Origin: a virus
Taxonomy: Duplodnaviria > Heunggongvirae > Uroviricota > Caudoviricetes
Virus record (IMG/VR): IMGVR_UViG_2548876963_000009
DNA: 16,480 nucleotides
Strand: one strand, 5' to 3'
Shown: positions 6,817 to 9,600 of the stretch, one piece after another
Position numbering within the stretch: the first letter of the stretch is position 1
Layout of the letters: each line of letters begins with the position of its first letter
Program-made: the position numbers and the translations under genes
The notes under the pieces: model-generated
Database searches by the model: none
What the model saw: the letters and a program-made list of their open reading frames with translations, nothing else
What the model was told of the DNA's origin: nothing

Positions 6817-6888
6817 TGTAGTGGCACAGTAAGTTTGGCCACCTGATTAAAGGTTATATTCTCACCTCAACACAAAACAGGTGACTTA

Positions 6889-7200
6889 ATGAACAAGAAA
6901 ACCAAACGTACTTTCACCCCCGAGTTCAGACTGGAATGTGCGCAACTGATTGTTGATAAGGGCTACTCATATCAACAAGCCAGTTAATCGATGAATATCG
7001 GCTCTACCACTCTTGAGAGCTGGGTACGTCAGCTCAGACGAGAGCGCCAGGGGATTGCCCCCTCTGCCACACCGATTACTCCAGACCAGCAACGTATCCG
7101 CGAGCTGGAAAAGCAGGTTCGCCGCCCGGAGGAACAAAATACGATATTAAAAAAGGCTACTGCACTCTTGATGTCCGACTCGCTGAACGGTTCACGATAG
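6889..7200 (+). pseudogene. IS3-family orfA (HTH transposase subunit) with an in-frame TAA at 6985..6987
   Basis: [32 protein letters not shown][26 protein letters not shown]...[18 protein letters not shown]. Both halves are in one frame and together resemble IS911 OrfA. Confidence 0.7.
7149..7155 (+). other. Programmed -1 ribosomal frameshift heptamer A-AAA-AAG of the IS3-family element
   Basis: AAAAAAG sits in the orfA zero frame (tta-AAA-AAG, LKK). The -1 frame is open from here into orfB. Confidence 0.6.
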
Positions 7201-7757
7201 TTGCCAGACTCAGTGGCAGCCACACCGTTGTCAGTCTGTGTTCTGCTCTGGGAATACACCGCAGCAGTTACCGGTACTGGCAAAAACGACGCGATACGGT
7301 GAATCCGGTGCATGTCAGGTTGTGCAGTGAAATACGCCGGATGTGGAACCAAAGCCGGGGCTCTGCGGGGGCGCGCACGCTGGCTGACATGCTGACCCAA
7401 AACGGCGTCCCGATGAGCCGTTACCGTGCCGGGCGGCTGATGAAACATCTGAATCTGAGCAGTTGTCAGCCCGGAAAACATCAGTACAAAAATGCCCGTC
7501 AGGAGCATACCTGCTTGCCGAATCTGCTCGGGCGCCAGTTCGCTGTCCCCGAGCCAGACCAGGTATGGTGTGGAGATATTACCTATATCTGGGCCGGAAA
7601 TTGCTGGTGCTATCTGGCGGTTGTGATGGATCTTTTTGCCCGCAGGGTTATCGGCTGGAGTCTGTCCGCACATGCCGATACTGCACTGATAAGCGATGCC
7701 CTGCGGATGGCCTATGAGACGCGTGGTCAAGCACATGATGTTATGTTCCATAGCGAC
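7155..7757 (+). pseudogene. IS3-family orfB (DDE transposase) 5' fragment, interrupted at the HSD|QG motif by the IS110-family element
   Basis: The -1 frame relative to orfA is open from the slippery site: ...[35 protein letters not shown]...HDVMFHSD, then element sequence. The ORF-track entry 7299..7820 reads through into the inserted element. Confidence 0.75.
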
Positions 7758-7839
7758 AGTAATAATGCCGGTATCAGTTTTTATCATCACTCTGTTTGCT
7801 GTTTAACCAGACTGGTGTGATTACTGATGCAGTGAAGAC

Positions 7840-7990
7840 CTTCCCGCATCCTGACTCACACAGCGATCGACCCTTTGTGTCCTGCCCTGGACCTGTCGGT
7901 TGCCGGAAGCGCCTTCATGCGAGGCGTCTCCTCACCGATGCGCGTGACTCAAGAAGGGCCTGACGGTTTGTCTCGTTACTGTCCTGTCCG
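7840..7990 (+). ncRNA. Putative bridge/seek RNA of the IS110-family element (target-binding module ~7852..7893, donor-binding module ~7945..7984); ends not defined
   Basis: Two paralogous modules with conserved TGACTCA and TTTGT(G/C)TC blocks flanking variable 7-8-nt segments. The variable segments match the insertion-site flanks (module 1) and the element's own termini (module 2). See findings. Confidence 0.45.
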
Positions 7991-8038
7991 GGTTATCTGT
8001 CTGGAGATTCAACTCTGTTTCCTCACAGGAGCTCTGTT

Positions 8039-9115
8039 ATGGCAGGTAAAGTTACGGAAACCGCTGTTGTGGGTGGCGTGGATACACATAAAGATCTGCA
8101 CGTTGCCGCTGTCGTAGATCAGAACAATAAAGTTCTGGGGACCCAGTTTTTCTCCACAACACGGCAAGGTTACCGGCAGATGCTGGCATGGATGACTTCG
8201 TTTGGGGCATTAAAGCGAATTGGTGTTGAGTGTACAGGCACCTATGGATCAGGTCTGCTTCGCTATTTACAGAATGCCGGGTTAGACGTTCTTGAGGTGA
8301 CTGCGCCAGATCGGATGGAGCGACGCAAACGGGGTAAAAGTGACACGATTGATGCTGAATGTGCCGCTCACGCCGCATTCTCCGGAATAAGAACCGTCAC
8401 ACCCAAAACGCGCAATGGCATGATTGAGTCTCTGCGGGTATTAAAAACTTGCCGAAAAACAGCAATATCAGCCCGCAGAGTCGCTCTCCAGATTATCCAT
8501 TCCAATATTATCTCTGCCCCGGATGAATTACGTGAACAGCTCAGAAATATGACGCGTATGCAGCTCATCAGGACTCTGGGATCCTGGCGGCCTGATGCCA
8601 GTGAATACCGCAATGTTACCAACGTTTATCGTATTTCATTAAAGTCCCTTGCCCGACGCTATCTCGAGTTACATGACGAAATCGCTGATTTGGATGTCAT
8701 GATTGCGGCAATTGTCGATGAGCTGGCGCCTGAACTGATTAAACGTAATGCTATTGGATACGAAAGCGCTTCGCAGTTGCTGATCACGGCAGGAGACAAT
8801 CCCCAACGATTAAGATCAGAATCAGGTTTTGCGGCACTGTGTGGTGTCAGCCCTGTTCCCGTATCTTCAGGAAAAACGAATCGTTATCGACTTAACCGGG
8901 GTGGAGATCGTGCTGCAAATAGTGCACTTCACATCATTGCCATCGGACGTTTGCGAACTGACGATAAAACGAAGGAATATGTCGCCAGACGAGTAGCGGA
9001 AGGGCATACAAAAATGGAAGCAATACGCTGCCTGAAGCGCTATATCTCACGCGAAGTTTATACATTACTGCGTAATCAAAACAGGCAGATCAACAGCATC
9101 CCGATAACGGCTTGA
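8039..9115 (+). CDS. IS110-family transposase/recombinase (N-terminal RuvC-like DEDD domain, C-terminal Tnp domain)
   Basis: 358 aa. AGGAG 7 nt upstream of the ATG. N-terminal VGGVDTHKDLHVAAVVD and ...GVECTGTYGSGL...KSDTIDAECAA motifs, and C-terminal ...LCGVSPVPVSSGKTNRYRLNRGGDRAANSALHIIA, are typical of IS110-family enzymes. Confidence 0.9.
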   Translation: MAGKVTETAVVGGVDTHKDLHVAAVVDQNNKVLGTQFFSTTRQGYRQMLAWMTSFGALKRIGVECTGTYGSGLLRYLQNAGLDVLEVTAPDRMERRKRGKSDTIDAECAAHAAFSGIRTVTPKTRNGMIESLRVLKTCRKTAISARRVALQIIHSNIISAPDELREQLRNMTRMQLIRTLGSWRPDASEYRNVTNVYRISLKSLARRYLELHDEIADLDVMIAAIVDELAPELIKRNAIGYESASQLLITAGDNPQRLRSESGFAALCGVSPVPVSSGKTNRYRLNRGGDRAANSALHIIAIGRLRTDDKTKEYVARRVAEGHTKMEAIRCLKRYISREVYTLLRNQNRQINSIPITA

Positions 9116-9131
9116 CTCTTAGAAGGGCGTC

Positions 9132-9440
9132 CAGGGCAGCCACTATACAAGCAGGCAGTTCCGGCAGTTACTGAGGCGTTACCAGATCAAACAGAGTCTG
9201 AGTCGACGAGGAAATTGCTGGGATAACAGCCCGATGGAGCGCTTCTTCAGGAGTCTGAAAAACGAGTGGATACCGGTGACGGGTTACATGAACTTCAGCG
9301 ATGCTGCCCATGAAATAACGGACTATATCGTTGGGTATTACAACGCGCTCAGGCCGCACGAATATAACGGTGGGTTGCCACCAAATGAATCGGAAAACCG
9401 ATACTGGAAAAACTCTAAAGCGGTGGCCAGTTTTTGTTGA
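9132..9440 (+). pseudogene. IS3-family orfB 3' fragment
   Basis: [102 protein letters not shown], in the same frame as the 5' fragment. It resembles the C-terminus of IS911 OrfB. Confidence 0.8.
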
Positions 9441-9600
9441 CCACTACACTACCTTCAGATACGATGCTGCCTCTTCACGAGTGAAGATTTCTTCTTCCAC
9501 CTGGAATCTCCATTTATTGAGTTGGTATTATTGCGGTAGGTCTGGATATCATTGAGCAATGAACAGGCCTCATCGAGTGTGAGGCGGTGTTATTTCATGG

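Follow-up and report, generated by a model that had tools for sequence, protein, structure and literature searches.

Mismatched flanks of an IS3-like element at a prophage rusA remnant, probably explained by closure of a circular contig across ISEc21

Does the IS3-like element that cuts the prophage gene rusA at positions 6817-9448 of the window (the whole 16,480-bp stretch of DNA analyzed here) mark the place where the late region of the phage was deleted? The preliminary description held that a single IS3-family element sits there at the footprint of an adjacent deletion, on the grounds of unequal flanking triplets and missing downstream genes. Its boundaries and flanks (GGC at 6814-6816, CTA at 9449-9451) are indeed seen in the sequence as it gave them, and rusA is interrupted by an IS3-family element, being cut after 94 nt. 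The termini are likewise of IS3 type, but one single element is not what lies between them, as its halves come from two elements with ISEc21 nested inside. Instead, we put at roughly 85% the reading that 6817-9448 is where a 16,424-bp circle closes, a hybrid of two IS3 elements joined across ISEc21. The nested ISEc21 at 7758-9131, the two IS3 origins and the 56-base terminal identity had gone without mention in the preliminary description.

The first and last 56 bases of the window are identical, forming an exact terminal overlap, and both copies map to one single-copy stretch in relatives (15294-15349 in chromosome L001 and 9263-9318 in L031), so that the 56-bp repeat reflects circular closure and not a biological repeat; as a guess, its length would be compatible with k-1 at k=57. 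The window is thus an entire circular contig, whose features are collected in Table 1. Positions 9132-16480 and 1-7757 correspond to adjoining, overlapping stretches of L001, with segment X preceding segment Y. The former carries two small ORFs, a PACE efflux gene, a LysR regulator, a dATP/dGTP pyrophosphohydrolase-domain gene, ea22, traR, exo, bet and gam, and the latter a truncated P (Pfam profile positions 46-162 of 162), an inverse autotransporter (739-4290), an alpha/beta hydrolase, ybcN, ninE and ybcO. Neither an O gene nor an origin nor a plasmid replication gene was found in the circle. Searches of plasmid and phage collections with the whole window returned no full-length record, the best plasmid match, pMY504-2, being a piece of chromosome that carries a prophage at the icd site, and an exact pattern spanning ISEc21, the right part of the IS element and the right flank had 0 matches in viral, genome and metagenome contig collections.

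Table 1. Features of the window (positions count from its first base)
Feature	Positions	Strand	Remarks
56-bp overlap, copy 1	1-56		Identical to 16425-16480
Segment Y	57-6722		In chromosomes continues straight on from X
rusA', 5' 94 nt (31 codons) of Holliday-junction resolvase gene	6723-6816	+	GTG start; cut by IS_B
GGC, IS_B left flank	6814-6816		No matching copy
IS_B-left, first 941 bp of 1258-bp ISEc31-like IS3-family element	6817-7757	+	
ISEc21 (IS110 family), 1374 bp	7758-9131	+	Inserted between GAC and CAGGG, no duplication
ISEc21 upstream non-coding region, 281 nt	7758-8038		5' of tnp
ISEc21 transposase gene	8039-9115		358-aa DEDD transposase
IS_A-right, last 317 bp of 1251-bp IS911-like IS3-family element	9132-9448	+	With right inverted repeat
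CTA, right copy of IS_A 3-bp target duplication	9449-9451		CTA/IS_A/CTA in chromosome L001
Segment X, prophage left arm	9449-16424		In chromosomes abuts right side of IS_A
56-bp overlap, copy 2	16425-16480		Unique circle length 16,424 bp

The IS3-like element extends from 6817 (TGTAGTGGCACAG...) to 9448 (...GACCACTACA) and shows 5'-TG...CA-3' terminal inverted repeats (TGTAGTGGCACAGTAAGTTTGGCCACC at 6817 and ...GGTGGCCAGTTTTTGTTGACCACTACA at 9448), yet its 2632 bp are composite: the first 941 bp come from an ISEc31-like element (IS_B), ISEc21 contributes the next 1374 bp, and the last 317 bp are those of an IS911-like element (IS_A). Identity between IS_A and IS_B is only ~64% over the whole length and 67-69% within the halves. 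IS_B-left, with its left inverted repeat, a degraded orfA that stops prematurely at a TAA, and orfB as far as the second catalytic D codon, is identical at 941/941 positions to the uninterrupted IS_B beside rusA' in L031 and 98.8% identical to IS_B of L001, as against about 64-67% to IS_A. IS_A-right is 99.4-100% identical to the IS_A right ends in L001, L004, L005, L006, L007, L013 and L031, with values of 99.7% for IS_A of L001 and 68.7% for the right end of IS_B. Pfam recognizes HTH_21 and rve on the left part (7299-7820), along with a weak HTH_Tnp_1, and rve_3 and rve_2 on the right part (9234-9440). The left and right inverted repeats therefore derive from two different elements, and neither the ends nor the transposase halves of 6817-9448 belong together; in the window orfB is moreover split by ISEc21; a programmed -1 frameshift is part of the annotation of intact relatives. 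No 3-bp target duplication surrounds the whole, GGC standing against CTA. Unrelated flanks would differ with a chance of 63/64, so the mismatch alone shows merely that this is no simple insertion; we attribute it to a chimera joined across ISEc21 and not to IS-mediated adjacent deletion. Megablast matches of many genomes that run up to position 9261 were set aside as extension into the conserved DDE region, since those copies have IS_B right halves.

As to their affiliation, the whole of IS_A is ~91% identical to elements that PGAP calls IS911 family, and it shares with IS911 the rve_3/rve_2 C-terminus, a terminal repeat ending in CA and 3-bp duplications (CTA, GTA), but the window holds its last 317 bp only and IS_A-type termini read TGTAGTGG. 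Canonical IS911 termini read TGAAGTGG. The left 941 bp of IS_B share with ISEc31 the left inverted repeat, orfA and the N-terminus of orfB (HTH_21, rve), but in the window they break off at the ISEc21 insertion point and a premature stop lies in orfA; at 91% identity to a copy that PGAP names ISEc31 (in L002), IS_B is a relative and not ISEc31 itself.

The central part, in turn, shares 99.6-100% identity with copies annotated as ISEc21, and its transposase carries DEDD_Tnp_IS110 (PF01548, 3.9e-20) and Transposase_20 (PF02371, 2.2e-12) domains, as expected of an IS110-family member; the non-coding region matched no Rfam family. ISEc21 is described as targeting the codons around the DDE triad's second D in IS3-family transposases, without duplication (Siddiquee et al. 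2024, PMC11187229). The window copy agrees with the reference in the 358-aa transposase, the non-coding region, the target and the lack of duplication and is identical in kind, its one peculiarity being that the IS3-family element on its left is not the one on its right. The junctions ...AGCGA(C/T)/AGTAATAATGCC and ...GGGCGTC/CAGGG(A/C)AGCC are common to IS_A, IS_B and the window, and the empty target in IS_B of L031 reads GCGAC/CAGGGAAGCC, which places a site-specific, duplication-free insertion at the second-D codon. ISEc21 occupies this same site in both element types: within IS_B in E. coli E2348/69 (L003) and within IS_A in L005, L006, L007, L013 and L031. It is present in multiple copies in some strains.

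In chromosomal relatives the two IS3 elements lie in the same orientation and bracket a lambdoid prophage remnant at thrW, with IS_A near int. The map of L001 is thrW-int-IS_A-X-Y-rusA'-IS_B-attR-yagU, that of L004 is the same, and in terms of the window the order reads thrW-int-IS_A-[9449..16480]-[1..6816]-IS_B-attR. IS_A retains intact target duplications, CTA/IS_A/CTA in L001 and GTA/GTA around the IS_A::ISEc21 copy in E2348/69, and the flank at its left end varies, falling at L001 coordinate 7066 in L001, 6240 in E2348/69 and 6019 in L013. IS_B has no target duplication in these chromosomes, with GGC on its left and GTT on its right. The rusA'-GGC/IS_B junction of the window is present in L001 and L031, and by alignment also in L004, L020, L022 and L024. 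In L021 an IS_B::ISEc21 lies inverted between rusA' and int'.

The closest of these relatives, L031, matches the window at 7757/7757 bases over 1-7757 and shows only 2 real differences in the rest. Its order is IS_A::ISEc21-X-Y-rusA'-IS_B, with IS_B uninterrupted and the target site intact. ISEc21 is thus already in IS_A of the closest relatives, and it is also in IS_B of the source strain, as seen in the window and in Logan contig SRR21142929_144 (L035), which equals window 438-7787 at 100%, runs without a break through the IS_B left repeat and position 7757 and ends 30 nt inside ISEc21. This independent assembly confirms the join of IS_B-left to ISEc21; the second ISEc21 copy, that in IS_B, is known from the window and this one 7.35-kb contig, whose source may be the same isolate. 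In exact look-ups of ORF products, the plus-strand fusion ORFs 7299-, 7341- and 7413-7820, which cross the join of IS_B-left and ISEc21, and a 253-aa antisense ORF are not on record, and a 252-aa antisense ORF alone has an exact match, in L035.

The ancestral chromosome, as the relatives show, carried the thrW prophage remnant between IS_A, near int, and IS_B, cutting rusA. ISEc21, seekRNA-guided, inserts in fixed orientation at the second catalytic D codon of IS3-family transposase genes, and its two copies form 1374-bp direct repeats around a 13.8-kb segment. Joining them yields a circle exactly equal to the window, flanked by GGC from the left of IS_B and by CTA as one half of the IS_A duplication, with IS_A-left::ISEc21::IS_B-right as the reciprocal product. 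A direct ISEc21 copy in each of the two elements, IS_A and IS_B, accounts for the closure, and the contig holds just the parts expected of it: one ISEc21, IS_A-right, X, Y, rusA' and IS_B-left, with the 56-bp closure overlap. The join may have arisen in the cell through RecA-dependent recombination, with a transient circle or a tandem duplication as the outcome, or it may be the work of the assembler only. The rearrangement is an ordinary one of mobile elements, and the junction is not the scar of a late-gene deletion.

The reciprocal product does exist, in another lineage. At the thrW locus of E2348/69, int' is followed by IS_A-left (934/934), ISEc21 and IS_B-right (99.7%) up to the attR flank, and X and Y are missing there, exactly as expected of the deletion that accompanies excision of the circle; 12 genomes cover 80% or more of window 9449-11000, and this one is not among them. 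The scar indicates that the exchange has occurred in nature, and it proves such an event for that other lineage only. Whether a circle or head-to-tail amplification of the 16.4-kb unit, formed by homologous recombination between ISEc21 copies, was physically present in the source culture is a sub-case of the closure reading to which we give somewhat less than an even chance. The E2348/69 scar, the closed contig output and the compatible set of junctions in L035 speak for it, but such a circle could not be maintained, since it lacks an O gene, an origin and a plasmid replication gene and has P only in truncated form, and the same junctions fit a plain linear chromosome with two ISEc21 copies. 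Indeed, the four junctions IS_A-left/ISEc21, IS_B-left/ISEc21, ISEc21/IS_A-right and ISEc21/IS_B-right are accommodated equally by that linear chromosome and by a deleted chromosome plus circle. ISEc21-IS_A-right joined to the right flank of the window was found in 0 of 5,426 complete E. coli genomes, among which the two-copy linear chromosome is likewise not seen. On balance we slightly favor a main state in which the chromosome is linear and has both ISEc21 copies.

Three further accounts do without closure between two ISEc21 copies at this locus. In that of the preliminary description, a single IS3 element in rusA would have removed the rusA 3' part, Q, lysis and late genes through adjacent deletion by intramolecular transposition, with 9449 as the far endpoint. 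The unequal GGC and CTA flanks agree with this, as do the absence of the rusA 3' half and late genes from the window, the lack of a duplication at chromosomal IS_B, 137 bp from attR, and the fact that IS_B is joined to the rusA 3' part in no complete genome. We nevertheless find it hardly credible: the right 317 bp belong to another element, CTA is half of an intact IS_A duplication, the DNA from 9449 onward is the prophage left arm, which lies upstream of rusA in phage order and joins the window start, and the real right junction of IS_B is not within the window. The right flank is, in other words, native to another IS on the opposite side of rusA in the prophage map. Features of adjacent deletion are recognizable in the chromosomes, in the missing duplication at IS_B and the variable deletions abutting the left end of IS_A, but the process is not applicable to the 9448/9449 junction, where IS_A-right meets its native flank and not a deletion endpoint. 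Neither rusA 3' sequence after the element nor matching triplets, the two observations named beforehand as counting against the deletion, was found; the refutation comes instead from the circularity of the contig and the chimeric element.

A mis-join between loci is very unlikely, too, although IS_B-type elements with ISEc21 occur at other loci (hypF-norW in E2348/69, for example) and the several ISEc21 copies of some strains could have let an assembler jump from the rusA-locus IS_B to an ISEc21-interrupted IS_B elsewhere and from there into IS_A-right. L035 is unbroken at k=31 from ybcO and rusA' through the 941 bp of IS_B-left into ISEc21, so IS_B-left is single-copy there and the join belongs to the rusA' locus; IS_B-left of the window also has locus-specific variants, being identical to L031 at 941/941 positions against 6 differences to the hypF-norW copy of E2348/69. 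It is highly improbable, finally, that the ISEc21 recombinase exchanged the junction of IS_A-left and the left end of ISEc21 with an empty IS_B target, a second ISEc21 copy never having been present. Such a target, empty, intact and in the right orientation, does lie 15 kb downstream in L031, and the join in the window falls exactly at the canonical insertion point; the E2348/69 scar is irrelevant here, as the exchange predicts IS_A-left/IS_B-right without ISEc21 and the scar keeps it. However, reactions of the IS110 family pair donor with target, or left with right junction, and a left junction paired with a target is none of those known (PMC11187229; PMC13626964). A mixed population would furthermore give a path from IS_B-left to IS_B-right, and L035 has no such branch at 7757, whereas ordinary insertion into IS_B accounts for everything.

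If the junction in the window does not record the loss of the late region, where might that loss have occurred? The rusA' fragment is 89% identical to nt 1-94 of the intact 363-nt gene (31953-32315 in L008), and its reading frame ends at a TAG within the IS terminus. Tblastn with intact RusA and blastn with rusA over the whole window found no RusA-like sequence at 9449-9600, as the preliminary description had said; the sole other tblastn match, to residues 37-74, is weak (32% identity, E 0.008, at 11927-12040 on the minus strand). Its statement that Q, lysis and late genes are absent is borne out as well, in that rusA from nt 94 onward and 17 kb of the ylcG-Q-lysis-head-tail region of an intact relative had no match in the window. 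The comparison with relatives that it suggested places the loss at the right end of IS_B and not at 9449. In chromosomal relatives, where no target duplication flanks IS_B, 137 bp separate this right end from attR, the thrW repeat; this puts IS_B at the site of late-region loss, so the notion that an IS removed the late region may hold for the chromosomal IS_B, though not with the junction in the window as its scar. Of the duplication sought elsewhere, the CTA copy is found left of IS_A in L001, but GGC has no counterpart, as the right flank of IS_B is GTT. Because the right end of IS_B followed by GGC and the rusA 3' part occurs in 0 of 5,426 complete genomes, the IS_B-associated deletion is one that we infer, and as history it is plausible. 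The late-region loss is an older, separate event outside the window, from which the true right junction of IS_B is absent.

The proposed closure resembles the direct-repeat recombination of composite transposons and translocatable units (IS26, IS1), in which two identical direct repeats surround a cargo, the circle keeps one copy and the reciprocal chromosome keeps one as well, as in E2348/69. It differs in that the repeats are nested in two dissimilar IS3 elements, leaving a hybrid IS3 shell on each product, and in that nothing points to re-insertion of the circle. Each of the mechanisms is already established, and no new question is opened; what the locus offers is a clean natural case of a known process, in which IS110-family homing puts long identical repeats inside dissimilar insertion sequences, these repeats license deletion or excision of the intervening DNA, and both reciprocal products are found in public data, in the window and at the thrW locus of E2348/69. 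More tentatively, and with the odds against it, the 16.4-kb circle or a tandem amplification may be real, with ISEc21 homing turning two unrelated IS3 elements into matched 1.4-kb recombination sites. These sites could then serve to excise, delete or amplify whatever lies between them, in this case a prophage remnant with a PACE biocide-efflux pump, a LysR regulator and an inverse autotransporter, and E2348/69 would represent the deletion outcome of the same process. For annotation, an IS with mismatched flanks can be misread as a deletion scar, an error that a check for terminal overlap and a separate comparison of the IS halves prevent. A possible second chimera is the L002 element, the left half of which is 91% similar to IS_B and the right half 87% to IS_A; for its joined halves the best uninterrupted matches are only ~85% identical.

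The DNA between the GGC and CTA triplets, which the preliminary description took for one IS3-family element, is composed of three parts (see the table below): portions of IS_B, which cuts rusA, and of IS_A, found near int, enclose ISEc21, whose 358-aa product matches the Pfam models DEDD_Tnp_IS110 and Transposase_20. IS_A is ~91% identical to elements with the PGAP label IS911 family and shares 64% identity with IS_B overall and 67-69% across the halves involved; the two are distinct elements. Relative to L001 (E. coli Z1323PEC0014), IS_B-left carries lineage-specific defects at 6986/7127, a TAA stop in orfA (CAGTGAATCG to CAGTTAATCG) and a Leu-to-Pro change, and the hybrid shell would be unable to make its own transposase, even after ISEc21 excision. 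A full-length Rfam isrC match (RF01387, 130.7 bits, E 2e-32) covers the start of IS_B orfA and suggests that this family captures the 5' region of IS3-type elements and does not mark a separate sRNA gene at this position.

Coordinates of the hybrid element and other features of the window
Feature	Position (strand)	Size	Description
Element with mismatched flanks	6817 (TGTAGTGGCACAG...) to 9448 (...GACCACTACA)	2632 bp	
Flanking triplets	GGC 6814-6816, CTA 9449-9451		left and right of the element
IS_B-left	6817-7757	941 bp	left portion of ISEc31-like IS3-family element
ISEc21	7758-9131	1374 bp	IS110-family element
IS_A-right	9132-9448	317 bp	right end of separate IS911-like IS3-family element
isrC match	6885-7007 (+)		
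Terminal repeat	1-56 = 16425-16480	56 bp	exact, direct
RusA-like match	11927-12040 (-)		weak
Second deletion junction	~16268-16350		gam / truncated P gene interval
Small ORFs	9601-9945, 9973-10140		
PACE-family multidrug/biocide efflux gene	10283-10741 (-)		prophage left-arm cargo
LysR regulator	10845-11729 (+)		divergent from efflux gene; left-arm cargo
Inverse autotransporter	739-4290 (+)	1183 aa	IAT_beta, Invasin_D3, Big_1 repeats
Alpha/beta hydrolase	4327-5370 (-)		

The gene content around the element is as first described. From its GTG start at 6723, rusA is interrupted after 94 nt, a fragment (rusA') 89% identical to nt 1-94 of the 363-nt intact gene in the related ST131 icd prophage L008 (31953-32315). 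Comparison with this relative confirmed the reported absence of rusA 3' and of Q, lysis and late genes: blastn and tblastn found no remainder of rusA near 9449, and L008 DNA from rusA nt 94 onward, with the ensuing 17 kb (ylcG-quuD-lysis-terminase-head-tail), has zero match in the window. A weak tblastn match to RusA residues 37-74 (32% identical; E 0.008, with the window as the only subject) falls within a dATP/dGTP pyrophosphohydrolase/DUF551 gene and is probably due to chance.

The differing triplets are likewise real, but their reading as the footprint of an adjacent deletion does not survive comparison with the chromosomes. L001 and E. coli 2015C-4136CT1 (L004) share the order proA - thrW - int - IS_A - window 9449..16480 - window 1..6816 (ending in rusA') - IS_B - 137 bp - 59-bp repeat of the thrW 3' end (attR) - integrase remnant - yagU; the window is therefore the interval from IS_A to IS_B, circularly permuted. 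There, IS_A is a simple insertion flanked by CTA on both sides, and IS_B lacks a duplication, with GGC on its left and GTT on its right; GGC and CTA, the latter one half of the IS_A duplication, were therefore never a pair. Both 56-bp terminal copies map to one single-copy stretch in related chromosomes, and this exact repeat marks the window as a complete circular contig (unique length 16,424 bp); at a guess, the overlap would fit k-1 of a k=57 de Bruijn assembler.

We propose that IS_A and IS_B would each have held an ISEc21 copy, in direct orientation and on either side of a 13.8-kb segment, and that joining these copies would give a circle with one ISEc21 between IS_B-left and IS_A-right, namely the window, together with a chromosome carrying IS_A-left::ISEc21::IS_B-right. 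At the thrW locus of E2348/69 (EPEC), outside the set of 12 genomes covering at least 80% of window 9449-11000, we find int'/IS_A-left (934/934 identical)::ISEc21::IS_B-right (99.7%)/GTTTGAAG...attR-yagU, the segment in between being absent; this reciprocal product shows that the exchange has occurred in nature at thrW. ISEc21 targets the codons of the second catalytic D in IS3-family transposase genes; it leaves no duplication and is directed by a seekRNA that the non-coding stretch upstream of its gene encodes (PMC11187229). It occupies the corresponding position in either kind of element: in IS_B between hypF and norW of E2348/69 (both halves IS_B, 99.4-99.5%), and in IS_A at three unrelated loci (L005-L007) and, at the same thrW locus as the window, in GCA_031852405.1 and GCA_019573565.1. 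The latter (L031) is identical to window 1-7757 at 7757/7757 bases, with two real differences only (9174 and 13028) over the other 8.7 kb, and reads linearly IS_A-left::ISEc21::IS_A-right - window 9449-16424 - window 57-6722 - rusA' - IS_B, its IS_B uninterrupted and the target site GCGAC/CAGGGAAGCC intact. Relative to L031, the window has the left end of ISEc21 joined to IS_B exactly at GCGAC, the product of an ordinary ISEc21 insertion into IS_B. The join is confirmed by Logan contig SRR21142929_144, an independent k=31 assembly matching window 438-7787 at 100% and ending exactly 30 nt into ISEc21. Since the contig has no break at the IS_B left repeat, IS_B-left is single-copy in that sample, and since there is none at 7757, no competing uninterrupted IS_B path exists; the sole break, inside ISEc21, indicates at least two different left flanks for ISEc21 in the sample.

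With a, b, c and d denoting IS_A-left, IS_B-left, IS_A-right and IS_B-right, R denoting ISEc21 and XY the prophage DNA, the four junctions fit equally a linear chromosome, a-R-c-XY-b-R-d, or a circle, R-c-XY-b, alongside a deleted chromosome, a-R-d. The circle may have existed in the source cells or in the assembly graph alone. It lacks an O gene and has only profile positions 46-162 of 162 of the Pfam P model, and no gene for plasmid replication, so that its stable maintenance as a replicon seems unlikely. We favor the linear two-copy chromosome as the main state; transient circles or a duplication may accompany it.

The proposal that an IS deletion removed the late region remains plausible for IS_B in the chromosomes, and fails for the window, from which that junction is absent. 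IS_B lies between rusA' and DNA 137 bp from attR without duplication in L001 and L031 (full junction read), with the same placement by alignment in related sequences L004, L020, L022 and L024, and none of 5,426 complete genomes has the 3' half of rusA after IS_B. This is naturally read as a deletion adjoining IS_B that took out the DNA from rusA 3' to the tail genes. It is older than the ISEc21-related events; L024 still has cI-cro-cII-O-P, yet already carries rusA'-IS_B. The thrW-locus copies of IS_B (L001 23367, L031 17336, L036 12617) have T, not A, as final base (...CCACTACT), and the hypF-norW copy ends ...CCACTACA. A terminal CA-3' is required for IS3-family transposition; at thrW either it was altered or one base was lost with the adjacent deletion.

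At the second deletion junction, ~5.3 kb is lost relative to L032 (267-5551: kil, cIII, N, cI, cro, cII, O and the 5' part of P), which leaves a remnant without immunity region and replication origin. Deletions of variable size also adjoin the IS_A left end (L001 6019-7066 compared with L013, L021 and L036): in L001 coordinates, the flank toward int stops at 7066 in L001 itself (where the CTA duplication is present), at 6240 in E2348/69 and at 6019 in GCA_031852405.1 (L013), and these look like genuine IS-adjacent deletions taking part of int.

IS3-family elements, ISEc21 with its IS3-directed target choice, and deletion or circle formation between direct repeats are already known; the hybrid and the reciprocal product add a new case within a known kind. 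They serve mainly as a warning on reading mismatched IS flanks, and illustrate how an IS parasitising other ISs creates recombination substrates. A further IS3::ISEc21, in NZ_CP180600.1 (3002-5633), resembles IS_B at 91% in its left half and IS_A at 87% (IS_B at 68%) in its right half. It may be either another hybrid or a native element of a third type; uninterrupted sequences match its joined halves at about 85% identity at best. CP148541.1 (L021, 10382-13013) has a complete, inverted IS_B::ISEc21 with rusA' on one side (GGC/right repeat) and int' on the other (left repeat/GTT, at L001 coordinate 6240), which indicates that its prophage segment is probably inverted relative to thrW; breakpoint 6240 is shared with E2348/69, yet a different IS half adjoins it in each.

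Of the other genes in the window, the two small ORFs are shared, at the end nearest int, by many prophages that otherwise differ (L010-L019), and the efflux/LysR pair recurs in L013, L014 and L017 only. Sequenced phages also carry the autotransporter/hydrolase pair, which is inserted between P and ybcN, as do intact ST131 prophages located at icd (L008).
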